The notes beneath the pieces were generated by a model. The model did no database searches. It had not been told where the DNA came from and saw only the letters and a list, made by a program, of their open reading frames with translations. From contig NC_073415.1 in assembly GCF_028641065.1 (NCBI RefSeq), positions 8,804,001 through 8,868,000 of the forward strand: DNA of 64,000 nucleotides, given 5' to 3'. The position numbers were made by a program, and so were the translations under genes. This DNA is from Leucoraja erinacea (Eukaryota). Below are positions 19,551 to 60,300 of the stretch, one piece after another (within the stretch, counting starts at the first letter, position 1; each line of letters begins with the position of its first letter).

Positions 19551-20838
19551 TGGGCAGCGGCGGTCTAGGTACGCGATCTCCCTGATGCTTCTAACGCACA
19601 ACGTGACGATGGGCTGTGCCGCCACCTCCACGCAGGAGCCGAGTGGACATTAGAAGCAAATGGATACATTTGGACTGGAGAGAAGATGGAGGGCAAGATA
19701 TCTCCGGGAGGGCGTGCATTCCTCTCATCAGTCTTTCTTCTTCACCCAGTTGTGTGCCTTTGGCCAATGGGATGATGAGATTAGAACAGAATGGTATATG
19801 CGGTCATTTATTTTTTGTATCTTTTCCTCTTTCCTCGCCCTGCCTCATTCCCTCTCTCTGTCCCTCTTTCCTTCTCGTCCTCCTTCGCTTGGCTTATCCA
19901 GTATTCTTTCTCTACACATCATTAATCTGTATTGACCATATTTATATGTTATGGTTTTGTATGAATCTCCCTGAGACGGTTACAATTTCCTGCTGTCATT
20001 CCTACAACTGGGACCAGAGTTTAAAGTTGAAGCTGTGTATTGAAATGTTTTCGAAGCAAAAAAAAAAGTAGGATGCTTGCCTAATGTTTAAGGATACAGC
20101 TTTGTCGTCTGTGGAAAGTGAATACCTCCTTCCCTCCCACACACGCCAATACTAATATTAGTGCCTTGAATCTGGCAATGTATGCGTAAATGGTACAGTG
20201 AAGGTGCCGATTGTCAGTCACTCCATCGTCTCACTGCTGTTTGATCAGCTTCTAGTTTACTGCAATTCAACACACACATGAGTTATTTAAAATTTAAATA
20301 TTTGTGTCAGTAGCTCAATGCAGTTTTGCTCCTGTTATTTGCTGAGGGTCTGGCAGCATCTCTGGAGAAATGGAATTGAACTGAAGAACTGATCCAACTT
20401 GAAACCGTTTTTCCAGAGATGCTGCCTGACCTGATGAATTGCACCTATATTTTGTGTCTATCTTTGGTATAAACCAGCATCTGCAGTTCTTTCCCACACA
20501 TTGTAGAGGTTCCGTTATTTTTGTAAGTTGGAGGACATGGCTGGATTTTTAAACATTGGGGATTACATTTTGCGCATGTTATTTTATGAATCACTTAAAA
20601 GGGTCAAGAATAAACATGGATCCATTTTGTTATCAGTGTGTGTAATTCCTTTATTTGAGAACCCTGAAACTGAAATTAGTCTCTGCCTTATACCCAAGTC
20701 ATTGTTCGGTGAAGAAGTAACTAGTGTGGTGTCAGCATCTGCTCTGTCCACGTGTCCCACTGGATCCTAATTATGGTATTTGAACTGTTGCCCGGGCCAA
20801 ACTGTAGAATAAATAGTGAAAGTGAGCAACTAAATATT

Positions 20839-20965
20839 TTAGTCTGAAGAAGGGTTTTGGCCTGAAACGTTGCCTATTTTTTCGCTCCATAGACACTGCT
20901 GCACCCGCTGAGTTTCTCCAGCACTTTTGTCTACATTCGATTTTCCAACATCTGCAGTTCCTTCT
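20839..20965 (+). mobile_element. Penelope-derived family B solo unit with 16-bp TSD
   Basis: Flanked by TGAGCAACTAAATATT at 20823-20838 and 20966-20981. Confidence 0.85.
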
Positions 20966-21049
20966 TGAGCAACTAAATATTGTTCGCCTTAGCAGGTTTA
21001 TTGATCTGCTCATACTTCCTTTGGGTCAATGATACTTGGGGACTGTGAC

Positions 21050-21960
21050 TCCGGGCCGGCAGGGGGCGTTGCGACTCCGGATGAGCAGCGAACCCGATAC
21101 CCTCGGGGCGGCGCTGTGGCTCCAGGCTGAGACTGGCGGCGCTGGACCGGGATGCCGGGCAGGTACTGCCATTCCGAGCCGGTTGCGGCGCTGCACCGGG
21201 AGGCCGGACTGGAGGCACTGCCGCTCCGGGCCGCTGGCGGCGCTGTACCTGGAGGTTGGACTGGCGGCTCCGGGCCGCTGGCGGCGCTGTACCTGGAGGC
21301 GCTGCCGCTCCGGGCCGCTGGCGGCGCTGTACCTGGAGGCTGGACTAGCGGCTCCGGGCCGCTGGCGGCGCTGTACCGGGAGGCCGGACTGGAGGCGCTG
21401 CCGCTCCGGGCCGCTGGCGGCGCTGTACCGGGAGGCCGGACTGGAGGCTGGACTGGCGGCTCCGGGCCGCTGGCGGCGCTGTACCTGGAGGCCGGACTGG
21501 AGGCGCTGCCGCTCCGGGCCGCTGGCGGCGCTGTACCTGGAGGCCACGGCGCCGGCAGTCGGGCCGAGCTCCGGAAGGCGGATGTTGTCGTTCACTTTGT
21601 GTCTCCGGCTGAAGATGGCCGCGGTGTTGGGCGAGAAGGCGGCGCTGAACTCGCTGCCCGAGAACGTGCTGGTGGAGATCCTGTCCTACCTCTCCACCCG
21701 GGACCTGCTGCGCATCAGCGGGTAGGCGGCCGGTGGGGGTCGGGGCCCGAGGAGCGGGGACTGGGGGGGACGGGGGGGGGGGAGGGGGGGAGGCAGTTGT
21801 CAGTCCTGCGGAAGGGGCGGTGGGAGGAGACGGGCCCGGCCCGGGGGGGGGGGGGGGGGGCGCTGTCGGAGCAGGAGGATAGAGGGCAGGGATGTGGCTG
21901 AGGGGGGGGGGGGAGAGACCCCAGCCTCAGGCCCAAGGCCGCGGTGCCAAAGTGACAAGC
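21050..21960 (+). promoter_or_regulatory. CpG island / promoter of FBXL12
   Basis: High CpG density; ETS-like CCGGAAG at about 21571; poly-G runs in intron 1. Confidence 0.75.
21170..21545. repeat. GC-rich minisatellite upstream of the FBXL12 ATG (core ccgggccgctggcggcgctgtacc x7 with variable spacers)
   Basis: Tandem array inside the FBXL12 CpG island, seen directly. Confidence 0.92.
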
Positions 21961-24900
21961 CTGGAGGGAGGGGAGAGGGGCAAACCCAGCCAGCAAGCAC
22001 CGTGGCTGAGGCCTCTTGTGTCAGACGTGGAGGGAGATGCGGAGGGGTGTAGAAAGACACGAGTAAAATGATTGATTTGGATCATAGAAACATAGACAGT
22101 AGGTGCAGTAGTAGAGGCCATTCGGCCCTTCGAGCCTGCACCGCCATTTAATATGATCATAGCTGATCATCCAACTCAGTATCCTGTACCTGCCTTCTCT
22201 CCATACTCCCTGATCCCTTTAGCCACAAGGGCCACATCTAACTCCCTCTTAAATATAGCCAATGAACTGTGGCCTCAACTACCTTCTGTGGCAGAGAGTT
22301 CCACAGGAGGATCTCAGGAGGATGGTGGAGATGGTCTTGTTCCAGACCACTGGGAGACAGGGGAAAACATTACCAGCCTGCAGAGGTGGGGAGGGGTGGG
22401 CATGGATTAATAGTTATAGAGCATAGATACCAGTACATCTGAAGAAGGGCCTCGACCCAAAATGTCACCCATTCCTTCTCTCCAGAAATGCTGCCTGTCC
22501 CGCTGAGTTACTCCAGCTTTTTGTGTCCATTACCATTAAATCTCATCTATGTTGATCAAACTGCACAAAAGTGGCACTAAAAGCAATAAACTGGGATTTT
22601 AATTTCAAAGCAGCCTGGGAATATGGCCAATTGTTCTGACGAGACAGTCGCATGTCCAAGAAACCCCTTGTTAAAGAAAATTGAGTTATACAAACGATTT
22701 TCTCAATGAGGAAATGGAAATCGAGGCTGGAGAGATTCAGATTGGCAAAAGCAAAGTTATTTTTGCCCTGTAGGATTTAAAAAAATAAATGTTCTTTTAA
22801 TAATTATGTTTATTTTTGTTACTGCTGCAATCTATAAATACCAAAGGCTGCATGTAATAGATTTTAATAGCATATCATTGCACAACTGTGAATAGAAGCG
22901 ATTGTTTGTCAATTTCAATGTCTACCTGTGGTGAAACATACTGACTATGTTGTTACAATGTTGCCTGATCACTGCATGGAGGTTACATGGAAACAGTGTT
23001 TATCCAACACTATTTTTTCTACTTGTCAACATTTAGTGGTTCTCTATTTTGCAGTCGAAATCATGTTGTAGCTTTTAACCCGCAAAATAAAAATGGTGTT
23101 CCCTAATTCATCAATCACATTATATTGAATTTGTGTTAATGAAACTTGTTTTATATCAGAACGACCTGTACTTTGTGTTTTCAGAGTCTGCAAGAGGTGG
23201 AGAAGATTAGCTTATGACAAAGGTCTCTGGAAAGATGTCAATTTAACCCCATACAAGGTAAGGAGCAATTCTGGTGCTTATTTCTGTAAGATTTCAAATT
23301 TGAAATGTTGTCCATGAGTTCCTCACCTTGAAAGAAACAATTTGTCAGTTTACGAATGATTTGGTGGTGAAATGAAGGTATCACGTTTGTTTTAAAAATC
23401 AGTATAAGCTTCCAGGTTAGGGTTATTTTTCAACAGGCCATCGTCATCAATAATGAAGAGACCGTGACATTTTAGATTTTAGTCTGAAGAAGGGTTTTGG
23501 CCCGAAACGTTGCCTATTTCCTTCGCTCCATAGATGCTGCTGCACCCGCTTAGTTTCTCCAGCTTTTTTGTATACCTGTGACATTTTAGATGTCAGGTTT
23601 TTCCTGAATGAAGAACTACCACCTGATCAGAGGAGATGTTTTCTCCATCTTGGCCCTGGTGCAGATGGCACTTAGATACGCATGGGTGACACAGCATGTA
23701 GCAACTGAGAAAGTTTCCCAGCTGAAAAATCCCTGTAGCATGTGTTGGTGTGTTTTTTTTGTTCAGAATATCTCTTGCCCAAATTGATTCCATCACACAG
23801 AATCTATCTACTCTTCATGCTGCCCTGAAAATGCAGCCATGGTAATCAAAGACCTTTCTGACCCCGGTCATTCCTCCAACTCCCGCCTGGCAGAAACCTG
23901 AAAAAGTGTTCCACCAGCAGACTCGGGAACAACTTCTTGCCCTTTGTTATTAGGCTTCTGAACAGTTCTTCCGTAAGCTAGGCTACTGTCTGATTCACAA
24001 CTGCCCCATTCAGGACTTTGGTCTTTATGGAACTGATGTACTACAATTTTACTACTGCAATGTTTAAGAAAGATTTAGACCATGGATAGGATAGGACAGG
24101 TTTAGATGGATATGGGCCAAACGCAGGCAGGTCGGACTAGTGTGGATGGGACATGTTGGCCAGTGTGGGCAAGTTGGGCCCAAGGGCCTGTTTCCTCACT
24201 GTAAGACTCTCTGACTCTAATGTTGAGAACTATTCTGCACTCTTTACCTTCCCCTTTGCTCTACTTATTGTACTTTAAACTGATTGTATCTATGTTAGTG
24301 TATCTGAACTGTTTGGATAGGATGCAAAGCAAGGGTTTTCACTGTATTCTGGTACATGTGACAGTCATAAACCTGAACCTTGTGGTTTGACTCTGCCCTA
24401 CAGGTGAACTCGCGGATTCTCTGGCACCTGGTCAGACATTACCTGGGTGGGACTCTGCGAACCCTGAGAGTGAAGGGCGTCCTCCATTCGGTCAAGAAGC
24501 ACGAGTCGCTGACAGAAGCCTTGCTGTTGGAGATTGGGAAACGCTGCCCGAACCTGTCTGAGCTGCGGCTCATTGAGATGAACCTGCGGGGCATCAACTA
24601 TGAATGCCTGCCACCTTCCTTGCTCAGCCTGGAGCTGACACACTGCGAGATTCCCCTGCACTGGTTCAGAGCGGCGGCAGCCACAGCCAACGGGACCCGC
24701 ATGCCTCCCCAAATCAAGAACCTGGAGGTGGACAATGTCCCCAACTTCTCAGACCAGCACTTGCAGAACGTGGCGTCGCGGACGGCGCTGAAGGTGCTGA
24801 TCCTGTCGGGCACGTACCGGGTCACCGACTCCGGCATCGAGAAGTCCGCCCAGTGTCTGTCCGAGGTGGTTCACCTGAAGCTCCACGGCTGCAACATCTC

Positions 24901-25219
24901 AGACGAGTCGCTGCGCCATATCTCCCAGCACCTGACGCAGCTCCGCACTTTGGACCTCACGAACTTCTGCTCCATGACGGACGCGGGCCTGGCCTGTCTC
25001 GGCGACCTGCGCTCGCTCCAGGCCCTCTGCTTCGAGTACTGCGACCAGATTACGGTGGAGAAGCTCCTGGCCGTGTGCACCGGGCTGCCGTCCCTGGCCA
25101 AGCTCAACCTGAACGGGAACCCCTACTCCGATGGAGACCTGCAGAAAATCCGGCAGAGCTTGCCCAACTGCACCGTCACCAACGATTTCCCTGCCATGGA
25201 CTCCATGCTCAAGTTTTAA
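21615..25219 (+). CDS. FBXL12: F-box/LRR-repeat protein 12 (331 aa)
   Basis: Exons 21615-21721, 23185-23257, 24404-25219 total 996 nt. They encode the F-box LNSLPENVLVEILSYL..RDLLRISGVCKRWRRL..DKGLWKDVNLTPY followed by Cys-containing LRRs including LILSGTYRVTDSG. The 3-exon structure and neighbourhood fit FBXL12. Confidence 0.88.
22084..22305 (-). mobile_element. CR1-type LINE 3' end
   Basis: Nearly identical to the 3' part of the 11993-12410 copy. Confidence 0.85.
23478..23577 (+). mobile_element. Penelope-derived family B solo unit with 14-bp TSD, in FBXL12 intron 2
   Basis: GTGACATTTTAGAT at 23464-23477 and 23578-23591; hammerhead-like core starts at 23484. Confidence 0.85.
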
Positions 25220-25854
25220 ACCATTGGGTTGTTCTCACCCTGGTGGTGCTCTGCCTTTTGGCCAGGAGAATTAGGAGCTGGCCGACTGCACCAAGTAACC
25301 CGGGCTCTTAGTTCCCCGAGGCTTGCATGGATTATTGTGCAGTTGGTCAAGTCCCCAACAGCGTTGTGTTTGAATTGACGAGCTGGCTGCCGCAGCCCAC
25401 GTCTTCTCGTACAGTGAACACCTCGTGGTATCTGTGGCATGGCGGAGAGCGAGCACCCTGCTGTTCAAAAGCGAACGGGGTGAGGGGCCTGTTTGGAGTA
25501 TGTTGAGATGAGCCAGGCGCGGACTGCCGAATGGGAAGCAATGTTTCGTTGCTGGCCTCAGGCAGACGGCATCCAACGTTTAGTGATGCTCTGTCTTTGG
25601 ATTGTGTGCCATTTATTTTTGCGTTGGTAGGACTGTGGAAATATGTACAGAGATGCAAGGAGGGAATGCATTGAGGTGCAAATTGTCTGGAAATACACAG
25701 CAAGTGCACAAACCTTCGACTGCTGTGCTGGGTAGTGGAGTGTGGCTAACCAACTGGTTTGCTGGATGCTGACAGCTTACGAAGAATATTTAACTCGTTC
25801 AGTAACGTCACACTGTTCGGCTAGGGTAATTTTATTTCGGAGCTTTGTTTTGAA

Positions 25855-25860
25855 AATAAA
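25855..25860 (+). terminator. Probable FBXL12 polyadenylation signal
   Basis: AATAAA 636 nt after the stop, followed by U-rich sequence. Confidence 0.6.
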
Positions 25861-29080: not shown

Positions 29081-29084
29081 CCAT

Positions 29085-29362: not shown

Positions 29363-29960
29363 CTATTCAGAAGTTGTAGGAGCAGAATTAGGCCAGTCGG
29401 TCCATCGAGGCCATTGCACCATTCAATTATGACTGATCTTTGCCTCCTAATCCCATTTTCCTGCCTCTCCATAACCCTTGACACCTGTTCTAATCACAAA
29501 TTCTCTGGATGCTTTCAAGAGAGAGCTAGATAGGGCTCTTAAAAATAGCGGAGTCGGGATATGGGGAGAAGGCAGGAACAGGATACTGATTGGGAATGAT
29601 CAGCCATGATCACATTGAATGGCGGTGCTGGCTTGAAGGGCCGAATGGCCTACTCCTGCACCTATTGTCTATTGAATTTGTCTATCTCTGCCTTAAACCA
29701 TCCACTGCCTTGGCCTCCGCAGCCCTGTGTGTGGCAATGAGTTCAACAGATTAACCTCCCTCTGACTAAAGACTGATTTTCATAAATACATGCATGCATA
29801 CTTCCTAACTTTGTCAATGCCCTTTATGGGCAACTATTTGCATACCTTGGATATGCAAGCAAATAATTTCACTGTCCCTGTGTTTAAAATCGTAATTAAT
29901 TAATTGGTTGATTGATTGATTCATGTAACCTCAGACACCAGTCAGCGCCCTCTCTTCTCT

Positions 29961-30376
29961 TCCCAGTCTGAAGAAGGGTTTCGGCCCGAAACGTCGCCTA
30001 TTTCCTTCGCTCCATAGATGCTGTGGACCTCTCATGAAGGACCTCTTCCACCCCTGCAACCGCTGGGTCAGGCAAACGCCTCCGTTGCCATGCAGTGAGA
30101 ACGGAGAGGTTGAGAAGGAGTTTCTTCCCAGAGGCAATTCGGACTGTAAACGCCTTTCTCACCAGGGACTAACTGTACAGAACGTTTTTCCTTCTATTAT
30201 TTATTACGTAAAATAATATGTGTGTTATGATTGTGTTTATAATTTGTTTGGTTGTTTTGTTTGTTCCGTGAGCATTGCCACTTTCATTTCACTGCACATC
30301 TCGTATGTGTATGTGACAAATAAACTTGACTTGACTTGCTGCTGCACCCGCTGAGTTTCTCCAGCAATTTTGTGTA
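29961..30376 (+). mobile_element. Penelope-derived family B unit (13-bp TSD) split by a nested LINE 3' end (~30024-30338)
   Basis: CCCTCTCTTCTCT at 29948-29960 and 30377-30389. The unit breaks at tccatagatgctg and resumes at gctgctgcacccgc. The nested insert ends aataaacttgacttgactt. Confidence 0.8.
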
Positions 30377-30399
30377 CCCTCTCTTCTCTGCTGTTCCTC

Positions 30400-30960: not shown

Positions 30961-31974
30961 ACAGAGTGTGCATCTTGTCCTCCTCCCCTTGGTCTCTACA
31001 TCTACCAACCTTCTACCTCCTCCAATCCCTCAACTTCCTCCCAACCCTCTACCTTCTCCCATGCTTCTTCCTCCTTGCCTCTGCCTCCTGCCATCCCTCT
31101 CACTCTTAAATGCTAATGGAGCGCCCAGGAGTGGCGTAGTTTGTAGCAGGCCGGCCGAGTTAGTTCATGATGCCCACGGGGTTATTGCAGCTACATGTCC
31201 CAGCGGCAGATTTGGGTGCATTCACAACCTCTCTCACTTTCACGGGGACATCCCGAAACATTTGTAGCTGTTCACCACTCGATTCGACCGTGAGTTGTTT
31301 TTTTTTTTACCTTGATCGCTATATGGAAGTTTCTTCACGCAGCCACATTTCTTCACAACAGGTGAAATTGTAATTGCGGTGTGTGTAAAAGAGTTGCCGC
31401 TACACAGCCGTGATTGAGTGGTGGAGTAGACTTGATGGGTCGGATGGCCTAATTCTGCTCAAAGAACTTATCAGCTTGTTAAACGATCGATCAATAAATG
31501 TGAATATTTATTACATTACTCTTTGGGTGGGAGAGTATATTTCGTTTGATTCTTAAGGCTGTAATTTTGATTCAATTTGTATATAATTCAATTTGTAAAA
31601 GGCCAACAGCCATACGGATGAGAATTCAGCAGAGTTGGTGGTGAATGCTACTGAAAGCCTTTTAATTGTAAGGGAATGAATTGTAAGGGAACTGTATCCC
31701 AATTGAGGATAATTATAAGAATAGGAAATGGCCTACAAGTTAGGCTTTACTAATGGAGAGGGGGAGAAATCGGACTCGATTTTACAAATAAATAAATTGC
31801 AACACAAGTAATTAGTTCTGGAGGTTATGTTTCTAGTTTAGGATGCATTGGTTGTTCACCATGTGGTCTCTGGATTAGAGAAACCAAATGGAGACTGGAT
31901 GAGCAGTTTGCAAAGTATCGGCATTGAGTTTGCAGAGGTAATCCTAAACTTCCTGTTATCTGTCACTTCAATTC

Positions 31975-32180
31975 TGCCTCTCAATCTTTCCTCATATGAC
32001 AGTCCCGCCATCCATGAGATCAATGTCGTGAACCTACGCTTCACTGCCTCGATCACAAGGATGTTTTTCCTCAAATTAGGAGACCAAAACTGTACACAAT
32101 ACTCCAGATGTGGTCTTACCAGAGCCCTATACAGCTGCAGAAGTACCTCTCTACTTCTATACTGAAATCCTCTTGTTATT
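31975..32180 (-). mobile_element. CR1-type LINE ORF2 fragment
   Basis: ITRGFQYRSREVLLQLYRALVRPHLEYCVQFWSPNLRK on the minus strand. Confidence 0.85.
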
Positions 32181-34990: not shown

Positions 34991-35305
34991 CTATTCATTT
35001 TCATTTCACTGCACATCTCGTATGTGTATGTGACGAATAAACTTGACTTGACTTAAAGTGTAGGTTTGTTTGGTAGATTTGTGTAATTCACTCAGCTGAG
35101 TCTTTAGCCTATTTTGTGTTCCTTTGGGTTATAGATCTGTTCCTTTGAATTTTGAAAATTACCAAACATTTGCTGGTTTTTAATTTTTTTGTGTAATTTT
35201 TTTCTCTTCCAGGATTTCCTTTGTGTAATTTAGATAGCCAGGGGGCAAATGAATCAATGCACTGCTCACCGATGCTGTGTCTTTTGACCATTAACTACGT
35301 GCCCA

Positions 35306-38300
35306 ATGAATTCCGTCTCACCTTCTGCCGTTCAGTACATCCAGAGCCAGGAAGATTTGACTCCCTCGGATTCTAAGAGGCGACTGCACCCAGCAGCCAG
35401 TGAGCGAGAGAACAACTGGAATGGCCAATATAACTTGCCAGAGAAACCACAACCCAACGAACCAGATGAAGTGGACAAGATTAAAGCTAAGTTTATGACA
35501 GCATGGAACAATGTCAAATATGGTGAGGGCACCTGGCGGAGAAGGAATTGTTTTCATACCTCCTATATATTGTTTCTCACTTTATTTCCCATTCAGCCCT
35601 GAATGTATTGTCTTGTGTTGGTTCCCAAACATCTTCCCCTTGCCTTTTTGCCTTGTGTTGTCAGCGCTTCAGTTATAAGGACTTGCCTTTAGTAACGGGC
35701 TGTACTAACCGATTTGTGTTTCTGCAGGTTGGGTGGTGAAAGGAAGAACAAATTTCAGCAAAACTTCCCCAATTTTTCTGCTGGGACGGTGCTACCAGTT
35801 TGAGTCAGAAGGTAACGCGTTCATTTCTGGGTCTGTGCACTTTTGAATGTTGCTAACCGTCAAGAACAAGTAATAACAAAACCATCTCTTTCCCCGCCAT
35901 CAGCTGATTCGCCACCAAGTCCAGAATCTGTTCACGAGGCAAGAGACAACCAAAATGCTCCTTCTCCCGTAGTCGAGCTGTTCAGGAAAGACTTCGGCTC
36001 TCGAATCTGGTTGACGTACCGTCGTGAATTTCCGCCGCTGGAGGGTTCAATTTGGACCACGGATTGTGGCTGGGGATGCATGTTACGCAGTGGACAGATG
36101 TTGCTCGCCCAAGGACTGCTTGTCCATCTGCTCTCTCGAAGTAAACTTTTCACTTTGTTTTAATTTTCACCCCTGATTGTAGTTCATCATAAGTGATAGG
36201 AGCAGCATTAGGCCATTCGGCCCATCAAGTCTACTCAGCCATTCAATCATGGCGGATCTATCTTTCCCTCCTAACCCCATTCTCCTGCCTTCTCCCCAAA
36301 ACCTCTGACACACGTACTAATCAAGTATCTATCTATCTTTGCCTTAAATATCTCCACTGACTTTGTCTCCACACCCTTCTGTGGTTAAGAGTTCAACTTG
36401 GATATTTTTAAGGCAGAGATAGATTTTTAATTGGTATGAGTGTCGGGGGTTATAGGGAGAAAGCCTGAGAATAGGGTCGAGAGGGAGAGATAGATCAGCA
36501 TTGATTGAATGGCGAAGTAGACTTGATGGGCCGAATAGTCTAATTCTGCTCCTATCACTTATGAACTAAATCTTCACCTGGTACTGAGGTTAGCAATAAA
36601 AATTCTGCAGTTCCCTGTCCTTAAACTAAAGTGGAGGAATCATTCCTGCTCCTGATCAGTGCCAATCCACTCCTGGTGAAAACGGGATCAGAGTTGAGTC
36701 ATACAGCATGAAAACAAGCTTTTCAGCCCAACAGGTCCAGGATGGCAAAGTTGCCCCATCTATGCTAGTCCCATATGCCTGCATTTGGCTCTTATCCCGC
36801 TAAACCTTTCCTATCCATGTTCCTGTCCAAATGTCTTTTAATGGGATCTTTTCCTACCACATATAACTGTGTGTTTGCGACTGTCTTTTCTCTAATGAAA
36901 AGTTGCCATTTTGGGGTATATTAGAGGATGGTGAGTGGCCGTGAATGTTTGTCATAATCTTTCTGTCCTCTGCCATCTACATTGGGAAAACCCGGAGTGA
37001 GCTTTTCACAAGGCATGTTACAGTCGACCAGACTGAGCAGTGCGTTCAGAAATCTTGAATGCTAATTATTTTGTTCCAGTTAAAATCTCCCAAAAACGCT
37101 TTAATATTTCCAATCTACATGTTCCATTTTGGCCTCTCTCATGTTGCTCAATCCTTCTTTAAATACTTACTTCTCCTACATCAAATGCATTCCCCTCCCC
37201 ACATTCCCCCTCTGCATAGTTAAGCAGCTTATTCGAGCTCAGTTCTGATGAAAAGTAATTGAATAGTTTGTCTCCATGGATTGAACTGCTGAGCATTTCA
37301 ATCATTTTCTGCTTTGACAGCATTGTAAACTTCCTATCTGTGATGAATTTATTTTCTATTATTGCTAGCCCTGGTTTTAAATGGCCGTCTTTCCTTTAGA
37401 CTGGACCTGGCCCGATGTGTTACTCTCTGTAGAGTCAGAGGCCGAAACCAGATCGCCATCCAGGTCCAACATCACAAACTGGTCAGCTTTCTCCGAAGTC
37501 CTCGGCTCGCAATTGGACAGAAGTAGAAGCCTCCATGCCCAAGGCTCCGCTGTCCCACAAGCACGTGCACGGACATTGAGACGGGCCAACGCTGACCCCA
37601 GAATGGACAAAGAGGAAATGGAGCATCGAAAAATCATTTCCTGGTTTGGTGACTACCCCAAGGCCCCATTTGGAGTACATCAGCTTGTAGAATACGGAAA
37701 GAGCTCTGGGAAGAAGGCCGGAGACTGGTATGGCCCATCCATTGTAGCGCATATAATCAAGTAAGTAAAGTTTGTGGAAGGGAAAGTTGTAACTGTATAG
37801 CACATTACCAATCAAAGTGTCCAAAGTAAAGCTACACTACTGCATGAAAGATGTGAGTGTGCTAGAGTAGTAAGAGAAGGTTCACCAGGATATTGCTTGG
37901 ATCAGGGCTTTTAGATTATAAGGAGTGAATAGATAGGATGGGTTTATTTTCCATAGAGCAGAGGAGGCTGAGGGGTGACATTGAGGTATACAAACCTGGA
38001 GGGATGAATGGGATAGATAGTAAGAATCTTATTCCTATGGTGGGGTTCTCCAAAACAAGAGGACACAGGTATAAGGGGTATGGGGATTTATAGGTGATCG
38101 GAGGGAGAGATTCCTTCACATTGAGAGTTGTTGGAATTTGGTTGTGGTTTATCTGGGGTGAATTACCTGATCTTGACTGTTAATCTAGTGGAATTAATTA
38201 ATTGGCTAGCGAGCAAATATTATCCAGAACTCGTTTCCCTTGAGTGTTCTTCAGTGATCGCAGCCAAACCTGCCACTGCATGTTCAGATTGGGGCTGCCA

Positions 38301-41300
38301 TGCTTCTCGCTATTGAATAGTTATCTGTGGCTCTGCCGTGTGTAGGAATGCCACATGGTTGAGATTCAGAAAGACCTTTGGAAACCATCAGATGGGCCTG
38401 AAGAAATATTGGGAAGCCAAGTTGGTTTGCAGTCATGCCTTCGTTGTCACATGCTGTCATGAAACTGGTTCTTCATTTTGTTTTTAGAAAAGCAGTGGAG
38501 CAAGCTGACGACTCTGAATCGCTGGGCATTGCTGTCTATGTAGCACAGGATTGTACAGGTGAACATGCACGCTGATTCTTCATACGTGTAAACATTGAGC
38601 GCTGCGCGACTTCTTACATGGTGAGACTAGAACTCTCTTTTAATTTGAGTTCACTGCAGGTAGAGGTACATTCATTTAATTTTAATGATATCACATTTTA
38701 TCAAGGTTTATAAAATACACAATTATAGTGTCAATATAAAAAAATTTGCTAGTGATAGAAGGCAGATGCAAGGAACTGCAGATGCTAGCATCAAAAATGG
38801 ATAAAGTGCTGGAGTACTCACTGGGTCATGCAATATTTCTAAAGTACATGGACAAGTTTTGGTTCGGCACCCTTCATTAATTGGGGGCTGGGTAGGTTTT
38901 GTGGGTTAGCAAGTGATAGATGGATACAGGAAACTGGAGAATGCGGTGCTGGCTCAAAGGGCCGAATAACCTCCTCCTGCACCTATTTTCTATGTTTCGG
39001 CACCTATTTCCGCATGGTAGTTTTCAAACCAATGATAAGAACATTGTATTTTCCAAATGGAATTAACACTGCTTGTCTTTGCATATTTGAAGTTACCATC
39101 TATTTCTTCTTCTGTGACAGTGTACACAGGTGATGTGGTGAATCTCTGTGAGATACAACTGAAGGGTAGAAAAGTTCCTGGTTTGGATTGGAAGTCTGTA
39201 ATTATCCTGGTGCCTGTTCGACTTGGAGGTGAAAGTCTCAACCCAGTGTACATGCAATGTGTAAAGGTAAACAGCGTGGTTAATATTAGATTATAAATGT
39301 TTTGAACAATTGTGTATGCGTAGCCTTCCCGCCCATCGGCTCTGATAGTCAGGTACACAAAAAAGCTGGAGAAACTCAGCGGGTGCAGCAGCATCTATGG
39401 AGCGAGGGAAATAGGCAACGTTTCGGGCCGAAACCCTTCTTCAGACGTTGAGCTGTAACTTATTCAGGCTCTGATAGTCATTTTGCTTTTCAAATGCTGT
39501 GTACATTAAGGTTTATCTCAAGTGCGCATTATTTTTTTCTGGATTTGGGTTGATACCATAGTTCTGAATAAATTCTTGTGTCCCTGACATGTGTCTGCTC
39601 TTCAGGCAATTTGTCTTGTTCCTTTTGATTCCATATCTTGTCACTTCCCTGTTGATGCATCTCAGTGTCCTTGTGGCTTTCCACAGAGATCTTGTGGAGG
39701 TGTACCAGGCATCTAATTATTGTGTGTTTGCAGGAAATCCTGAAGCTTGAATGTTGCCTTGGAATCATTGGTGGGAAACCAAAGCACTCGCTTTACTTCA
39801 TTGGATTTCAAGGTAATAATAATAATAATACATTTTATTTATGGGTGCCTTTCAAGAGTCTCAAGGACACCTTACAAAAATTTAGCAGGTAGAGGAAAAA
39901 CATGTAAGGGGAATGAAATAAATAGTAGAGACATCACTAGTACACAAAGAGCACTAGTAGGTACTCTTGTAGGTGTTGATGTTTAATGTAGTTAAGTTTA
40001 GTTTATTGTCACGTGTACTGAGGTACAGTGAAAAGCTTTCGTTGCGTGCTAACCAGTCAGCGGAAAGACAATACATGATTACAATCGAGCCATCCACAGT
40101 GTACAGATACATGATAAGGGAAGAAAGTTTAGTGCAAGGTAAAGCCAGTAAAGTCCGATCAAAGATAGTCCGAGGGTCTCCAATTGAGGTGGATAGGTGA
40201 ATTGAGGTGCTCTCATCTTATGTGTAAGAAAGAACTGCAGATGCTGGTTTTAATCGAAGGTAGACACAAAATGCTGGAGTAACTCAACGGGAATGGATGA
40301 TGTTTTGGGTTGAGACCCTTCTTCAGACTCAGTCACCCATTCCTTCTCTCCAGAGATGCTGCCTGTCCCGCTGAGTTACTTCAGCATTTTGTGTCTGCCT
40401 GCTCTCATCTTATTTGTTCTTTACCTGACTGGGAAGGGACAATGATTTGTGTGGGGCTCAGGACCAGGGGAATAGTTGTGGAAGTAACAGCAGCATCTGC
40501 ATCACTGGCAAACATGCAGATGCTGGGAGGGAATGTAGTAAGTTTGCATTACACAAATGAAAAACACTTGGAGCATTCAATTCTCCATTGAAGCTAGCAA
40601 TGATGGTGAAGGAGTTCATCCATGCGGTCTTTAAATCTTCGCCATTGCATCTCCACTGTCAACCCTTCAAGTACAATTGCCAGTCTATCCCAGCCAATTC
40701 CCGTCTCATACCTTCATTACTTTACAGATGATTTCCTGCTGTATTTGGACCCTCACTACTGCCAGCCGGTTGTGGATGTAACTAAATACAACTTCCTGCT
40801 GGAGGTAAGCAATGCTTGGCTGCTGCTGCAGGACGGGGCCCATGCCTGCTGCTCACCTGGTTTCCATTAGCCAAGCAGTTGCTGAGATATTTATGTGTTG
40901 GGAGGTTTATTTGTTGGCTTAAACTGAAGACAGACGCAAAAAGCTGGAGTAACTCGGGTCAGGCAGCATCTCTGGAGAAAAGGAATAAATGGCATTTTAA
41001 ATTGAGACCCTTCAGACTGCAAGTCAGGGGAAAGGGGAATGAGAGATATAGACGGTATTCGGGACAAATGAATGTTGTGGAGCAGGAGGAAGAAGGGCCT
41101 CGACCTGAAACCTATTCCTTTTCTCCAGAGATACTGCCCGACTTCTGAGTTACTCCAGCATTATGTCGGGTTAATACTGAGTCAGATAGACTGAATCACG
41201 ACAGCAGTATTAAGCTGTCTTTTGGCATTGGAAGGGTGTTTTTCATTTCCTGGCCTATTAGCAAAGCTATTTTGTGGCATTTATGGGTGTGCTATTTTAA

Positions 41301-43662: not shown

Positions 43663-43927
43663 TGAAGATAGACACAAAATGCTGGAGTAACTCAGCAGGA
43701 CAGGCAGCATCTCTGGAGAGAAGGATTGGTGACGTTTTGGGTCGAGACCCTTCTTCAGACTGAAGGAATGGGTGACGTTTCGGGTCAAGATCCCTCTTCA
43801 GACTGAAGAAGGGACTCGACCCGAAACGTCACCCATTCCTTCTCTCCAGAGATGCTGCCTGTCCCGCTGAATTACTCCAGCATTTTGTGTCTATCTTCAT
43901 TGTAAACCAACATCTGCAGTTCCTACC
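43663..43927. mobile_element. Penelope-derived foldback element with three hammerhead-like cores, in the probable ATG4D 3' UTR
   Basis: Near-perfect inverted arms spanning 43663-43899; cores at 43731-43758(-), 43774-43801(-) and 43803-43830(+). Confidence 0.85.
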
Positions 43928-51342: not shown

Positions 51343-54300
51343 TTACCATGTATCAGTCTGTAAACAGAAAGGAAAGACGCAGTCAGTCATGAATGCTATT
51401 AAAATGATGCAGTGAATCGACGGAATCCGCACCCTCCATGCAAGAGCAGCCCATCACCTGCATAAGTGGGGGATGACAGACAGCCCTGCGGACATCCAGA
51501 CCACACATCATGAATGACTGCCCACTGAGGCTTTTCCCCGGGGGCATCAAAGCCATTCACCCAGTAACTGATGCTGTCCTGGCCTGGATGACTACTTGAT
51601 CTACAACTTTAGGCTGTGCACGCCATACGCAAGAAGAAGTGAATTGGTCTAGGAGAAAAAGTGGTATTTCTTCCTTTAATCTCTTGGACAAATGCATGCT
51701 GAAATGTATGGATAGATTGTACAGCACTAAGATAATAACTATAGAACTGTTTTGACTTGAGCTTTTTGTAGGAGTATCTTAGAAATCTGGAGGACAATGG
51801 CGAGCCATTCACCTCATGTCCATGCCACTTATAATCTCATTAATCTCACATCCCATCTGCTCATCTCCTCAACACAGTTGTGCTACATCACGTAGATACT
51901 TGAAAAATGTTATCAGGGGTGTTTGCTTCCATCTTCAATTTTCAGGCAATCGCTTCTGACTCCCCTCCACTTCCTGGGTGTAAACTTTTAGCAAAGTCCC
52001 CTTGTCATCATGCTACAAATGACCATAAATCTATTCCCCCATTGTATTGACCTCTCAGGTGAGGGGACAGTTTTCCTTATTTTTTTCGTGTTCAACTTGA
52101 ATGATCCAAAATCAACTCATTTGAAATGTACAATGACACAGTCCAATCTTTTTGGTTTGGGAGAGGCAGAGGAAGAAATTCTTGGGAGAGGAACAAACGG
52201 CAATAAGCAATTGTACTTGTTATTCCTCTCTGATTTCCAACTAGATTTGTGACTTGCTTTACTAACCTAATGGGCATTATTTTAATTGCAGGCTTATATG
52301 GAGCTGGTATTGAAGTGGCCCATAAGATGTCTTGCTTGTTTATTAATTTCACCCAGTTGCTATTCTTGTCAGGAAATCCAGCTGATGAACCAAAGGAGAT
52401 GATGGATCTACGCTGCAGAGTCACGGTAAGGTTTATATTTCTAATCAGTTGGCATTTGTTGCAGAGTTGGTTGCGACATTTTGACATTGTGAAAGATGCT
52501 ATAGAAATGCAAGCCTTTCTTTCTTTGAACTCTGGTGCAAATGCTGGTTTAGTGATCTAACTCCCATCTGAGTTTGAAGGATCAAGCCCCATTTACATTT
52601 TACAGTTTAGTTGATTGTCACGTCCCGAGGTGCAGTGAAAAGGAACTGTAGATGCGGGTTTTCAAAATAAAGACACATAGTTCTGGAGTAACACAGCAGG
52701 TCAGGCAGGAGAACATGGATAGGTGATGTTTCAGATCCATCTGAAGAAGAGTCCGAACCCGAAACGTCACACATCCATGTTCTCAAGAGATGCTGCCTGA
52801 CCCACTGAGTTACGCCAGCGCACTGTAACCTTACTTGGAGGACTAGGGGGTAGGTTTTGCCCACAATTAATCCAGTAAATATAAGGGGGTGCAGAGTCAA
52901 AAAGGCTAGGGTGGAGTTTAACATGCTCAGGAAGATCTGGAGCTCAAAACACATCTCAATCGACACCAAAATACGCATCTTTAACTCGCATGTGAAACGG
53001 GTGATGCTGTATGGATCGGAGACATAGAAAACAACAAAACACACTACAGACAAGCTGCAAACATTCACCAACACCTGCCTTAGGAGAATACTTAACATCT
53101 GGTGGGGAGACAAAAGGGCCTGTCCCACCTGGGCATCATTTGCATGTCACGCAGATGGCGGGCAAAGATTTTGTACATCCCAAAATCCTGGGGTGCTGGG
53201 CGCGACCGCGCGTCACTGCCTACATCACCACGCACTATGCGCGTGTCGTGACCCGTAAATGATGTCGTGTAAATGACGCCCAAGTGAGACAGGCCCTGAC
53301 GTAAGCAATGTGGACCTGTGGAAAAGAACAAGCCAGGAGCCCATTGACTTACAAATTCGAAGGAGAAAATGGAGTTGGATTGGACACATCCACAGGAAAC
53401 TTGCTACAAACATCACCCGGCAAGCCCGGAAATGGAACCCCCAAGGGAAAAGGAAAAGTGGTCGCCCCAGGAACAGCTGGAAAAGAGGTGCCCAGACAGA
53501 AATGTCTGAGAGTGGGCGCAACTGGGGAAATCTCGAATGAACTGCCAACAACCAAGTGAGGTGTAGGACATTTGTCAATGGCCTCTGCTCCTTAGAGGAG
53601 CAAAGGCCTTAAGAAGAGGAAGACAATACGACGGGGAGCAGTTGGGAATTCACGAGCATTCAACTCACCTCAGAATCTGAAGTATTGCACATTTGTTTCA
53701 CCATCAACTCTTTCCTTGTGTTATCAATACATCTACCTGTTAAAGAGAAGTCCTGTTTTATTAGCACACTTTTTCTTGATATATTTGTATTGCGCAGAAA
53801 AGGTCGATTTAGTTCTGACTGCAACCAAATGTTGGAAAAACCATTGGGGAAGAGGTCACTATCATGCTGCAACTTGCACATATTTAAAATGGGGAGGCTC
53901 TTTCGGTAAAATGTTAGGCTTGGTTGGGCTTAGTTCAGCAGGTATACAACACCTAGGTTTGAGCTGTGGACCTTCTGGTCCATGGGTGGGTTTTCTCCAG
54001 GTGCTCTGGTTTCCTCCCACAGTCCAAAGATGTGCTGGTTGAAGGTTAACTGGCTTTGGTTGTAAATTGTCCCTTGTGTGTAGGGTAGTGGTTGTGTACG
54101 GGGATCGCTGGTCGGCACAGTCCCGGTGGGCCGAAAGGCCTGTGTCCGCTCTGTATCTCTGTATAAACTAAACCAATGAAGCGAATGGCCTAAAACGATC
54201 AGGGAGCACATATTCACAACATGAAGATTACCAACATGTACCCATGAATGGATTGTGGATGTGATTTGAGTTTTGTGCTCTGCTTTCCTTTTCAAGCGAG

Positions 54301-57300
54301 ATAAATTATTTTTAACTATGATTTTATTTAAATTATTTTTTTAAAGTAAGGTCATAAAGTCATTGACTGAGTGAAGTCTGGAGACTGACCTCTCTTAATC
54401 TTGGCTACGGTCGTGTTTCCTTTGCTGGAATAGCACAGGTTCTGAATCTGCTCCTGCATGTCGACCATTGCCAACCTACATTGAAATACAAGTGGGCAAC
54501 ATTAAAGGTTAAGAGACCAGATAGAGGTCACTCTACTATACCCCTTCTCATCAATCTTTACCCTACACTTTGGTTCCAAGTTTCCCTGCTCCTGAAGGTG
54601 CTATCTATGGCCTGTCCTCACTAAGTGTTTGTCCCTGGGTAAAACGATCCATTTCCCAGTCAAGTTTAATTCCTCCTTCCCAGTCCACAGTGTCCGAGGA
54701 GGGCAAGGAAACTGGCGCATGTTCTCTCTTCTTAACCCTGTATTTATAGTGTTTCTTATTATATAGACACATCAGGATCAACATGGTTGATGCATTACCA
54801 CCAGGCAGTTCAATCTCATGCCATTTTGACAAAGGAATTGGGAAGAGACATTCATAACCATAAGACAGAGGGGCAGCATGATGCCATTCAGCTCGTCGAG
54901 TTTGTTCCACCATTCGATAATGGCTGATCTATTTTTCCCTCTTAAACCCCATTCTCCTGCCTTCTCCCTGTACCCTTTGATACCCTTACCAATCAAGAAC
55001 CTACCAATCTCTGCTTTAAAAATACCCAATGACCTGGCCTTCACTGCTGTCCTTGGCAATGAATTCCACAGATTCACCACCCTCTGGCTAAATACATTTC
55101 TCCTCATCTCCATTTGGAAGGTACATCCTTTTATTCCGAGGCTGTGCCCTCTGGTTCTGGACTGTCCCACTAGTAGAAGCATTCTCTCCACATCCACTCT
55201 ATCCAGGCCTTACATTGTTCCAATGAGGCTTCACTGAGATCCACCCTCATCCTTTTAAACTCCAGTGAGTACAGGCTCAGCCATCAAACGCTCCCCATAT
55301 GTTAGCCATGCGGTCTTTCGAGTCACCTCTGCCAGGCATAAAGATCCTGGTCTTTAGCATTTTCCTACCCACTCTTTCACATTAACTACATTTGAACCTG
55401 TTGTTCTGCCACATACTTAATGTCTTTTAGCTCCTGTTCAGGATCCAGTGACTGTATTTGTCTGCATCTTTGTATTAGTCTTTCTAGAATCTGGATGGGA
55501 ATAAAGAATTACAGGACATTATCTTCACAGTCTAATGTCACCTGTAAGAATAACACCATAGGTTAATGGCCAAATGCAGGCAAATAGAACCACCTCAGGA
55601 AGGCACCTTGGTGGTGTGGACTAGTTGGGTTGAAAGGCATGTTTCCATGCTGCGAGACTCATTAAGTCTAACTGGGATTTGGGATCATTTGGCTCCTTTA
55701 GGAACAGCTGATCAAGAAACAAAATAAAGAGTAGATTGAGTGTTCATCGTGTTGCTGTACCTGATTATATTTCTTTTGGTTCTGCCTGAGTATTTTGCAA
55801 TCTGTCAAACTACTTAACAGATCATCCTCTTGAATAGCTGCAACACAAAAGGAATAAAACTATTTATTTTCATTTTCATTTCAGAAGTCTTTAGCATTCA
55901 GTCCATCTAATTTCCCCGGTCTGGATCTATATATTTGTTGTTTCTCAACCCAATCAACATATACAACGAGGAAGAGGCAAAGGATACTCACTTAGCTTTC
56001 TGTTAATTTGCTCTATTTCTTTATGCAATGATTCGCATTCTTCCCATAGAAACTTTTTGCTGCAAGAGACAGAGAACTGGGTTAACTCACTTATTGTGAT
56101 ATCACAGAGAGTAACTTACAATTAACATGTGGATAAGATGCCCTCCTTTGTGTTTCCCCATCAGATTATTCTGGTGGACATTTTTCTCTTGAATACCTTT
56201 GGTCGAATTAGGACTAAACATCTAATTAGAACTGAGACGAGGAAACACTTTTTCTCACAGAGAGTGGTGAGTCTGTGGAATTCTCTGCCTCGGAGGGCGT
56301 TTGAGGCAGGTTCTCTGGATGCTTTCAAGAGAAAGCCAGATAGGGCTCTTAAAATAGCGCAGTCAGGGGATATGGGGAGAAGGCAGGAACGGGGTACTGA
56401 TTGGGGATGATCAGCCATGATCACATTGAATGGCGGTGCTAGCTCGAAGGGCCGAATGGCCTACTCCTGCACCTATTGTCTATAATTGTTATTTTGCTTG
56501 TAATTTCTCCAAATGGGTGCAGTCGGCTTGTCAGCTGGTGGGCTCCTTTGACAAGCTACCTGTTTGTTTAAAGTGAATTAATCGCCTGTCATTTCCTCTA
56601 TTGAGTAGCTACTGGTAGCATAGGTGGTGAGTGCAGGTATTGAGGGGGGTGGTTCTGGGACACAGGAACTAATTGTTGAACATTCCCAATGTGTGGGCCT
56701 AACTCAATGAAACACCAGTGAAGGAAGGTGCCCACTTGAAGAAGTGTCTCGACCCAAAGCGTCACCCATTCCTTCTCTCCAGAGATGCTGCCTGTCCCAC
56801 TGAGTTACTCCAGCTTTTTGTGTCTAACCCCAATGATATACTTGCATCGTTTTTTAAAATGTTCTTACTAACATGTAGATAGCTGATTATTGCATATGGA
56901 GTTAGTTATTGTCCTTAGCACAAGTGTGTATAATCAGTGCAAAAACTACTTGGGTTTTGGGCTTGGTTTTCTTGGTTGAGCGCTTATCTTGGTGTTGTAG
57001 CACAAATGCTTTGTGTTTCAATTGTAATTCACACCTCAGCATGTACGGGACAAGTTCTGAAACTAAAATCCAGAGCAAGAATAAGCCCCCTATCCGATCA
57101 TTATCTTGTATGGAAAGGAAATGACTTCTGCTCTGAAACTATCTGGAAAGGTCTGAATACAAATACCTGCAGAATCAAAGCTAGACTTCCTGGGTGGCTC
57201 TAATGTTACAGCATTGTCAGGTCACCACAAATCTGATTCTAATGTTGAGTGGGAGTTAATTAGATGTTGGCCTGTGCTTCACTCCAACTAAATGGTGCCA

Positions 57301-60300
57301 TGGTGGAGTCAATGCTATTGGACTTGTACTTGGTTATGGTTCTACAGGCACCAGAATGGACCCATTACTAATGGTAAACCTAATCCAGTGGTTTAACTGG
57401 GGGAGGGTATAGAGTCTACGGTCACCTAAATTACACATCTTGTCCAATGGATAATAACTGTGGCTGGATTCTTGCCCATTAATCATTTCAGTTTAGCTTA
57501 TTGTCACTGTCCCAAGGTACAGCAAAAAGCTTTTGTGCCCCCACTGATCTTGAGTTGGAGGTGCCCTAATGGATATTGGCATAAAGGAGCTTAAATCCCT
57601 CTGAGCTTTGATAAGAATAGTAAATCTAGTTTGTCAGAGAGCCTCTGTTTTGGCCTGGTTCACCTCTCGTGTATTTCTGTCGCAAGTTCTTCGGTATGGT
57701 TGTTGGTATCTGTTGATTGCCCCTGGTTTTCTGCTTGTTGGGTCGGGTCTTGTGAATTGGTTGGGTTCGAGCACAGCTCCTTCTTCCAGTCTTCAATCTT
57801 TCTGTCTATCATCAGGTTAATCCTGTCCTCTTCGATGTTGCTACACATGCTCAGTCTCCTCACCTCCGCTGCGAAAGGAACAAAGGGTTCACCGGTGTGG
57901 TGGGAGCAGCCACGCTCCCTGTCCGTGCTAAAGGGAGTTGGTTTCTAGGAGGGTTGATCTCTGGGTAAGTGCTCAGGTTAGGGTGCATTATAACAATGTA
58001 ATCTCCGCATGAATCTTGTCCCTACGGGTGTTGGAGGCTAGAATTCAGTGAACGGGAAGGTTTATTGTTAATTGTCCCATGTACTGAGGTACAGTGAAAA
58101 GCTGCGTGCTAACCAGTCAGCGGAAAGACAATACATGATTACAATCGAGCCATTCACAGTGTACAGATACATGATATGGGAATAATGTTCAGTGCAAGGT
58201 AAAGTCCGATCAAAGATGGCCCAAGGGTCACCAATGAGGTAGATAATAACTCAGGACTGCTCTCTAGCTGTTGGTAGGATGATTCAGCTGCTGGACAACA
58301 GCTGATGTGGGATTAGGATGTGGAATGAAACTGGGGCAGATTACCTTGGGCATCTAACAGAGCACCATCCCTGCATCTGCTGCCCACTGGAGATGCTCCC
58401 ACCCACCCACCTCGCCTGCACCACAAACATTCCCCAGAGACCCTTCCCCCCCCACCACCGTACCTACCCTCTAGTAGTCGGATCTGCTGCTGATGGTGGC
58501 TTCGTTCCTTCGCCAGGAGGCTCACAGTCTGATTCAAGGATTCAATGGTCTAGGAATGAAGTGAAGCGTGAGAACAGGAGCAGGAACAGAGTGGCACCAT
58601 TTCCAATCACAACACACTACCATGGCTATCACAGTTACACGTGGCACATGGACAAATGTGACAGAGCACAATGTTAGCGATATGTGGAGGGTGATGTCGA
58701 AGTGGAGAAGATGGCTGATGTGAGCTTAGGTGATATCAAATAACACTGGCACAGATGCTGACAGATTGCAGCAACTATCTTTCAGATGTTGAGAAAGGTC
58801 TCGACCCGAATCGTTGCCCATTCCTTCTCTCCAGAGATGCTGCCTCACCCGCTGAGTTACTCCAGCATTTTGTGTATCCCATCCATTTAAACTACCATCT
58901 GCAGTTCTTTCTTACACATTCTTTTTTGTTGCTGCTATTCTTAGCTACACAAGGAAATGGCTTATCTGTTCCAGCTTATATGTTCTATATGTCCCAGAAA
59001 GAAATATGTAGAGAGGAACTGCAGATGCTGGTTTAAACAAAAGTTGGCACAAAATGCTGGAGTAACTCAGCGGGACAGGCAGCATCTCCATCAGTCTGAA
59101 GAAGGGTCTTGACACGAAATGTCACCCATTCCTTCTCTCCAGAGATGCTGCCTGACCCGCTGAGTTACTCCAACATGTACTTTCTACAGGTACACAAAAA
59201 AGCTGGAGAAACTCAGCGGGTGCAGCAGCATCTATGGAGCGAAGGAAATAGGCAACGTTTCGGGCCGAAACCCTTCTTCAGACTTTCTACTTTCTACATA
59301 TTGCCAGTTGTGATGAAGGCTGATCAGAATGTTTCTCGCCCCACCCATGCTGGCCGAACTGCTGAGCATTTCCAGCATGTCAATAGACAATAGGTGGAGG
59401 AGTAGGCCATTTGGCCCTTTGAGCCAGCACAATGTGATCATGGCTGATCATCCCCAATCAGTACCCCGTTCCTGCCTTCTCCCCATATTCCCTCCCTTTA
59501 AGAGCCCTATCTAGCTCTCTTTTGAAAGCATGTCCTCTTTATTTTAGCTTCAGATTGCAATGGGAGAGAGAATAAGTGAAGAAATCACAGAAGTAAAACT
59601 GTGCCTGAGCCATACTCGAGTTTGGACTTCAATGTGGAACTTGATGACCTCGAGCTCATCTATCAGGTGCTTGCTCTCTGGCGAAGATCCCGCCTGGGTG
59701 TCACTGAAGCTCCGCACCTTGTTAAATGCAGTGTCTGCAACACAGGAGAGGTTCGTCAGACCTGCTGATCAAGTGATGTCTGTTTTGTTAATCTGTGCTA
59801 GTGAACTGGATGTTTTGAGTTTAAATATTAACGTGTCCCCACCTTTCTGGTGACAACCGCCAAACTTCAACGTCTGCTGCAAGGGAACAAAATAATATCA
59901 GTGACTCAAAACCAACTTGCAGGTGAGCTTGTGATTGACAGCCCCATTGTCTACACTAGACTGGTGCTCTCCTCACAAAGCCTAGCGCAATTAATTAGCA
60001 GCGATCGCTTGATCCCTTTACACCAATGTTATAGAGTCTTACAGTGTAGAAACAGGCCCTTCCGCCCAACTTGCCCACACTGGCCAACATATCCCATCTA
60101 CACAAGTCCCACCTGCCTGCATTTGGCCCATATCCCTCCAAACCTGTCCCATCCATGTCCAAATGTTTCTTAAACATTGTGATAGTACCTGCTTCACTTC
60201 TTCCCCCAGCATTCACCCACCAGCCTTTGTGTGGAAAATGTTACCTCTCAGCTTCCTATAAAATCTTTCTTCCATCCCCTTAAACCTATGTCATGTGGCT

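Follow-up and report, generated by a model that had tools for sequence, protein, structure and literature searches.

The short repeats considered here are scattered over a 64,000-nucleotide stretch of the Leucoraja erinacea genome (contig NC_073415.1, labelled C39; C39:8804001-8868000 within a 2.19-Gb genome). This whole stretch is called the window below; other contigs are labelled C1, C8 and C9, and loci carry labels such as L066. The repeats derive from a Penelope-like element (PLE), and the closest described system is the Neptune clade of endonuclease-bearing (EN+) PLEs. In the available part of the account by Craig et al. (2021; PMC8557442), these elements combine a reverse transcriptase (RT), a Zn-finger-like CX2-5CxxC linker and, at the C-terminus, a GIY-YIG domain. 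They occur as partial tandems with a hammerhead in the pseudo-long terminal repeat (pLTR), and they show inverted 5'-truncated partners, an optional 30-40-bp tail and strong 5' truncation. The element described here shares all of this. It differs from that description in its very strong 5' boundary at the start of the hammerhead, its tens of thousands of solo pLTRs with target-site duplications (TSDs) and its long Pro-rich N-terminal region.

The anole element PAc belongs to a different PLE clade, Poseidon (Frangieh et al. 2024; PMC11167929). It has the same two tail-defining 3' ends, which are read there as internal RT start sites, and its hammerhead is reported to be unnecessary for insertion. 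Neither a 5' hot spot nor mini-arrays, both of which are seen here, are described for PAc in the accessible text of that paper. The hammerhead itself resembles the minimal type I hammerheads of metazoan PLEs as set out in the available portion of Cervera and de la Pena (2014; PMC4209133), with a CUGANGA and GAAA core, one additional nucleotide separating positions 9 and 10.1, a G10.1-C11.1 pair and a palindromic 15.2-16.2. Those motifs, too, are mostly dispersed single copies tied to truncated PLEs. Helices II and I are 7-8 and 4-5 bp there, whereas the predicted motif here has 4 and 2 bp, helix I being as short as in D. virilis.

The metazoan non-LTR retrozymes are also derived from pLTRs and bear hammerheads, according to the parts consulted of Cervera and de la Pena (2020; PMC7229834) and Li et al. 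(2026; bioRxiv 10.64898/2026.07.22.740005). Circular RNA templates are proposed in the former and local amplification after insertion in the latter. Their units of 150-450 bp overlap in size with those of the tandem arrays reported below (178-700 bp). In contrast to retrozymes, the copies in the window are solo, and the arrays found elsewhere carry a minimal hammerhead, have a junction of their own in each case and were apparently made at insertion.

The short repeats are probably the 3' pLTR, with or without its tail, of a young autonomous PLE, likely of Neptune type. They would be produced by the RT of the element itself, which likely begins at an internal position of the RNA and halts just ahead of the hammerhead, at what is likely the RNA 5' end. 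The element is a young, ordinary PLE of a kind already known, and its pLTR has flooded the genome. The first-pass annotation, made from the sequence of the window, had called the repeats young and Penelope-derived, and both calls hold, the unit being the 3' end of the autonomous element.

The parent used for comparison is the monomer at L066 2912-6866. Positions are numbered from +1, the A of AGTCTGAAG in this parent, and the predicted hammerhead cut falls between +31 and +32. The monomer is 3,955 bp long, encodes an RT, a CxxC linker and a GIY-YIG domain, and ends in the unit. The same junction is present in L063 and L078; these two and L066, among 20 loci picked for long frames, are partial tandems in which unit and tail continue into the open reading frame (ORF), and in L066 the copies in tandem show 99.6% identity to each other. 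Exact matches genome-wide number 25,184 for a 31-mer of the unit and 57,315 for a 28-mer of its 3' part. At 14 of the first 30 loci a shared pyrimidine-rich sequence lies upstream and leads into the GIY-YIG coding end, and a protein search gave 150 scored matches, with an identity of 100%. The frames found are 1,127 and 1,085 amino acids long, the first ATG of the long ORF lying at +168, whereas the PAc ORF starts inside stem II (PMC11167929, in the part available). The motifs DKG, CGRRRCNTC (amino acid 994) and YIGET are present in the L061 frame and YIDD in L066. Pfam matches to RVT_1 (E 9.8e-7) and GIY-YIG (E 0.006) are both below the curated cut-off, and a 301-amino-acid C-terminal piece matched no Pfam family.

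The features by which EN+ PLEs are recognised are thus present, namely a single RT with a C-terminal GIY-YIG, a pLTR-forming partial tandem, an optional tail and inverted 5' partners. The CX2-5CxxC linker between RT and EN, a mark of Neptune that is common to Nematis, suggests that the element is probably of Neptune type. The ORF (L066 about 3600-4500, and the L061 frame) has a long Pro-rich N-terminal region with a variable number of 33-bp internal repeats, where most of the frameshifts lie. Family A, the second group of repeats in the window, is the same element end from older subfamilies: GIY-YIG matches lie upstream at 8 of 30 loci, six of them ending 101-141 nt before the unit. The copies in the window are as follows.

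11872..11993, plus strand: pLTR unit of family B that spans parent -1..+122 and includes most of the tail, 117/122 identical to the parent in L066, without a TSD, embedded in another repeat.
20823..20838, plus strand: left TSD of 16 bp, right copy at 20966-20981.
20841..20966, plus strand: family B unit with tail (parent +1..+128), an older variant, 113/126 identical to the parent.
23464..23477, plus strand: left TSD of 14 bp, right copy at 23578-23591.
23481..23577, plus strand: family B unit without tail (+1..+98), 93/97 identical, hammerhead core at 23484-23511, predicted cut after 23511.
29948..29960, plus strand: left TSD of 13 bp, right copy at 30377-30389.
29964..30378, plus strand: family B unit without tail, interrupted by a 313-bp insertion of another repeat (30024-30336).
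39351..39446, minus strand: family B unit without tail (+2..+98), 94/96 identical, 14-bp TSD at 39338-39351 and 39467-39480, 20 extra nucleotides at 39447-39466.
59188..59284, minus strand: family B unit without tail (+1..+98), 96/97 identical, 11-bp TSD at 59178-59188 and 59288-59298.
16968..17364, minus strand: older family A copy of the long kind, reaching upstream through the 3' untranslated region (3'UTR) into the GIY-YIG coding end (tblastn match 17364-17254, 68% identity, E 2.5e-9).
43663..43920, no single strand: one of the older head-to-head inverted pairs of family A, given as an example.

All six family B copies proposed at the outset were recovered, with identities to the parent unit from 113/126 to 96/97 letters, and the five claimed TSDs have exactly the expected lengths of 16, 14, 13, 14 and 11 bp, the copy at 11872 being the one without. 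The five are real insertions, because a direct repeat of at least 10 bp occurs by chance in 0.24% of 3,782 mismatched flank pairs. The description of a unit of about 100 bp fits in part. Four copies lack the tail, but two carry it (to +122 and +128); the copy at 29964 is split by 313 bp and the one at 39351 has 20 extra nucleotides beside its TSD. Comparable extra letters between TSD and unit occur in 14 of 32 TSD-bearing short copies, some of them copied from the start of the unit. The window is also rich in older family A copies, often as head-to-head pairs, and the family B copy at 59188-59284 is nested, having inserted at the end of one such inverted pair (59044-59176).

The ends of the copies were read in two overlapping samples, which together hold 168 distinct copies: 99 copies holding +19..+49 on C1 up to 12.5 Mb (sample 1) and, among the matches listed, 97 copies holding +56..+83 on C1 up to 3.96 Mb (sample 2). 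The 3' ends are bimodal, at +91..104 in 56/99 and 53/97 copies and at +127..137 in 36/99 and 35/97. The two ranges jointly hold 92/99 and 88/97 of the ends, and their spacing matches the optional PLE tail. The 5' ends fall at -4..+4 in 43 copies of sample 1 and 40 of sample 2. In sample 2 a further 22 lie at +5..+16 (15 of them beside an inverted copy), 5 at +17..+55 and 3 at -20..-5. Copies running further upstream, into the 3'UTR or the GIY-YIG region, number 27/97 (reaching -1,121) and 29/99, and genome-wide the parent's upstream 7 nt are kept in 7,415 of 18,893 exact matches. The copy ends are not random, and on this the first-pass annotation was right: the stopping rate per base reaches 0.104 at -4..+4, whereas it is 0.0013 over +17..+55 and, upstream of -20, 0.0024, a 44-fold difference between the hot spot and the upstream stretch. 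An inverted copy adjoins 37 of the 99 copies in sample 1.

Insertion produces TSDs of 8-18 bp, with frequent inverted partners. A TSD of at least 8 bp flanks 36 of 62 non-inverted copies, compared to 1.4% by chance, and it is found with both short copies (20/29) and long ones (12/23). The short unit does insert on its own, as proposed, and since TSDs flank both classes, long forms insert in the same way.

How the short copies might arise can be put together from these ends. The 3' ends near +97 and +134 would be internal RT start sites, by analogy with in vitro work on the anole PLE. We lean, by a modest margin of confidence, towards +1 being the transcription start, in which case the short copies would be run-off 'strong-stop' complementary DNAs (cDNAs). 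Read-through RNA or a jump to the 3' pLTR would account for the long copies, and the short copies would lead no further, each autonomous subfamily producing its own set anew. On rare occasions the RT probably jumps from the 5' stop back to +205..+315, repeatedly, and so may lay down mini tandem arrays at insertion. The sequence TCAGT at +1 fits the initiator consensus. PLE promoters sit within the pLTR (PMC2377424), and a rotifer pLTR carries an initiator-like TCACT (PMC3846280, in the part available). In RNA reads from a related organism, depth is about 2,000-4,500 over the unit and 1-20 in the ORF, with a sharp step at +1 (from 35 to 2,891), and 93% of the reads there continue into unlike flank; embedded copies dominate these reads.

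Several points weigh against this reading. Both samples come from the first 12.5 Mb of C1 and are biased to well-preserved copies. Among 20 long loci an ORF intact from end to end was not found, with frameshifts in the C-rich N-terminal part, and assignment to Neptune rests on a linker motif that Nematis also has. Three runs of raw RNA reads and one contig set, all of the related organism, showed no pile-up of RNA starts or ends, and the 5' ends are spread over about 8 nt. A cap-derived G, seen in 13/23 copies (p=0.007), shrinks genome-wide to 762 G against 1,631 A/T, a G fraction of 0.32 where about 0.28 is expected from base composition, and it is not counted as support. In D. virilis, 46 nt separate the transcription start from a 75-nt intron downstream of it (PMC2377424), and this intron ends on its 3' side at helix I (PMC4209133, available part), so the start there is well upstream of the hammerhead. 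Finally, the palindrome TCAG-T-CTGA at -2..+7 could itself cause pausing or fold-back.

This last point leads to the one serious rival, which we consider less probable but far from negligible. Here +1 is not an RNA end at all; in copying long read-through RNA, the RT would meet a structure or palindrome at the hammerhead's foot, pause there and drop off, and the short copies would be hot-spot truncations. The scatter of ends over -4..+5, the second cluster at +5..+16 with 15 of its 22 ends beside an inverted copy, the palindrome, the weak G excess and the missing pile-up of RNA starts all suit it, as does the wide range of the upstream jump points in the arrays described below (-406 to +46, with only 9/40 at -4..+5). 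However, the RT would then have to stop on leaving the structured part and not on entering it, none of the 14 segments of the L275 array crosses +1, and TCAGT is kept in A and B subfamilies despite their differing 3'UTRs, although its last three letters are partly fixed by the search pattern.

The first-pass annotation had instead seen a separate non-autonomous family, ribozyme-headed and like a short interspersed element (SINE), whose copies are themselves transcribed and are moved in trans. The sharp 5' boundary, the two fixed 3' ends, the TSDs of the short copies and the very high copy number speak for such a family, and in a rotifer PLE the pLTR sequences are able to work in trans (PMC3846280, in the part available). 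Against this, the unit sequence is identical to the 3' end of the autonomous element, and over +5..+90 the parent sequence is matched perfectly by 6 of 69 short copies. When these 69 short copies were compared with 45 long ones, the distance between classes equalled that within them (permutation p=0.43), and the lowest single-site p among 13 sites was 0.044, uncorrected. The tail is present in 24/69 short and 19/45 long copies, and every subfamily variant occurs in both classes. Short copies thus have defined ends and their own TSDs, but because they share their subfamily variants with long copies they form no SINE-like lineage apart from an autonomous partner; it appears, therefore, that every autonomous subfamily gives off short copies of its own. 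Also, the RNA of the anole PLE needs ORF sequence well past the start sites, which solo copies lack (PMC11167929, accessible part). The idea is largely refuted, and we give it very little credence.

Slightly less probable still is that the boundary is a 3' splice site (polypyrimidine tract plus CAG) and that short copies come from spliced RNA: the pyrimidine-rich 3'UTR does end in CAG at the start of helix I, where the D. virilis Penelope intron also ends (PMC4209133, available part), but short copies have no common upstream exon, no such joint is among the best 15 of 112 joints in the RNA reads, and the candidate donor region joined to +3 has 2 matches genome-wide, which speaks against splice-derived copies as the main route.

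The hammerhead core reported at first pass is present in order, with CUGAAGA, an extra A, stem II, GAAA, ACGU and H17. The minimal type I features are all there, namely the conserved core, the extra base at 9.1, G10.1-C11.1 and a palindromic helix III, and the core is identical in the A and B references. Stem II does pair in both families, as claimed, but the better reading is a stem of 4 bp closed by a 4-nt loop, because the proposed 5-bp version leaves a 2-nt loop. Helix I has 2 bp and its third pair is mismatched, in agreement with the earlier doubt about cleavage of the monomer on account of a 2-3-bp stem I. Rfam returned no hammerhead match at E<=1 among 8 window hits. A set of 255 copies not selected by the exact hammerhead pattern showed no two-sided covariation (mutual information <=0.05 bits); in that set the A and B hammerheads differ by pair-preserving, one-sided U-A/U-G changes in stem II and helix I, a loop base and H17. 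The hammerhead is not the minimum-energy fold (-4.5 compared to -6.7 kcal/mol; z=0.52, and -0.45 to 0.88 over four sequences).

The position of copy starts bears on whether the RNA is cut. None of the 97 copies of sample 2 begins at +32. Starts at the cut were hinted at by 3 of the 5 ends in +17..+55 and by array L275, and were not borne out in 276 unselected copies, where +32..+37 holds 3/152 A ends and 4/124 B ends and is not enriched. Copies run through the cut site, and the lack of starts there argues that the templates are mostly uncut. This agrees with the anole PLE, in which uncut RNA is the main template (PMC11167929, in the part available). The hammerhead is likely to be mostly uncut in templates, and would need a dimer or a PLE protein to cleave.

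The new element of this work lies outside the window, in head-to-tail mini-arrays. The sequence just past the tail (+181..+211) has 182 exact matches genome-wide, and the 100 matches listed correspond to 70 loci. Parsing covered 56 of these: 52 that represent all those on contigs C1-C8 except one known full-length locus, and 4 picked for having several matches. At 40/56 loci (37/52) a head-to-tail join leads from +212..+315 to a point between -406 and +46; 12 others run on into the ORF and 4 are of other kinds. No join at the 56 parsed loci lands between +316 and about +750. Only this upper bound (+315) is informative, because the pile of landings at +212/+213 is partly forced by the +181..+211 pattern. 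The upstream jump point is at -4..+5 in 9/40 joins and unit lengths are 178-700 bp. A TSD of at least 8 bp flanks 16 of the 27 array structures checked, and eight loci hold two or more joins.

The L275 array (6475-8947; C1 about 24.092-24.095 Mb) has 14 segments that are 99.5-100% identical to the parent. Nine start at +35/+36, three at +1..+5, one at about +25 and one at +48. The segment ends lie at +205 to +223, except in the last segment, which stops at +96. No TSD was found at L275. The L277 array (2389-5930; C9 about 41.121-41.124 Mb) is inverted and consists of about 13 units, each 150-290 bp long; a single 15-bp TSD encloses joins of several types. Short arrays with a repeated junction occur at L124/L245 (C1 about 9.705 Mb), L269, L274, L276, L278 and L280. 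A complete hammerhead is present in each unit of a few arrays, for example L245, L269, L277, L278 and L280, and such arrays would score as non-LTR retrozymes. A second group of upstream jump points (9/40) lies at -112 to -144, near the ORF stop codon, and some ordinary copies end at -131, -143 and -110; this cluster is possibly a second RNA start or pause site.

Mixed joins within one TSD, some of which extend beyond those next to them, fit repeated RT jumps on a short RNA at insertion; neither one covalent circle nor unequal crossing-over at a later time would easily yield them. The arrays thus likely reflect reiterative template jumping by the RT, although host repair synthesis or assembly error may also account for them. 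They are not a spreading family, because the joins differ between loci. A spreading 209-bp retrozyme family is ruled out by the single join that was searched, which has 4 matches at 2 loci. Telomerase and bacterial DRT2 work in a similar way, making tandem cDNA repeats from one short RNA region by template jumps (Wilkinson et al. 2024; PMC12039810, available part), as we infer for the arrays. The jumps here, however, are imprecise and rare by-products of a mobile element that is a member of neither system. In the accessible part of PMC3846280, template jumps are invoked only for Asn-rich inserts. No account of mixed-junction mini-arrays or of this family was found in the literature searched, a search that stopped short of subscription papers, Repbase and the supplements of Li et al., which cover retrozyme families of one cartilaginous fish and may include these arrays.

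Tentatively, and at somewhat less than even chances, the PLE RT, sister to telomerase, may itself have a repeat-addition activity, copying an RNA region of 180-400 nt and jumping from the 5' stop to +205..+315 up to about 13 times per insertion. If this is true, hammerhead-bearing tandem arrays arise at the moment of insertion, which would be a direct birth route for animal non-LTR retrozymes, and pLTR tandems would be explained without a ribozyme-ligated circle. The alternation in L275 between +1..+5 and +35/+36 would then record one uncut and one hammerhead-cut RNA per particle, and would be evidence of cleavage in vivo.

That the unit spreads as a hammerhead-cut, circularised retrozyme RNA, as the retrozyme-like label at first pass implied, is as improbable as splicing: mini tandem arrays do exist, and the nine L275 segments at +35/+36, like 3 of the 5 ends in +17..+55, start 3-4 nt past the predicted cut, but solo copies run through that cut, array junctions are not cut-to-cut and vary from locus to locus as well as inside single arrays, a fold more stable than the hammerhead exists, and the window copies do not begin at the cut and are solo units outside any tandem, with a minimal 2-bp helix I in place of the canonical 6-bp helix I with loop contacts.

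What makes the repeats valuable is that they give a natural record of the PLE cycle, which is poorly understood. Their two 3' ends carry the anole in vitro result over to a second clade, and the sharp 5' boundary points to a likely RNA start. The mini-arrays bear on the regeneration of tandems and pLTRs, for which no obvious mechanism was seen and which was stated as an open question in PMC2377424, and on the origin of retrozymes, being a possible birth route for retrozyme-like arrays.

Some smaller features were also seen. Outside the window, at L305 1754-1857, the 27-bp segment +66..+92 is present in four perfect copies on the 5' side of an insertion, which resembles RT slippage. Within it, a PLE that is more distant has left a decayed GIY-YIG remnant at 31844-31987 (45% identity, E 7e-5). 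The 313-bp repeat at 30024-30336 belongs to another family, with relatives in L140 (93%) and L225 (85%), and its 3' end is found again at 34996-35053. A G-rich 23-bp minisatellite occupies 13247-13563 and a GC-rich tandem array with units of 44-108 bp occupies 21133-21545. An inverted pair of a different abundant short repeat (36187-36564; 148-nt arms, 82% complementary) is the source of a below-threshold Rfam microRNA hit.

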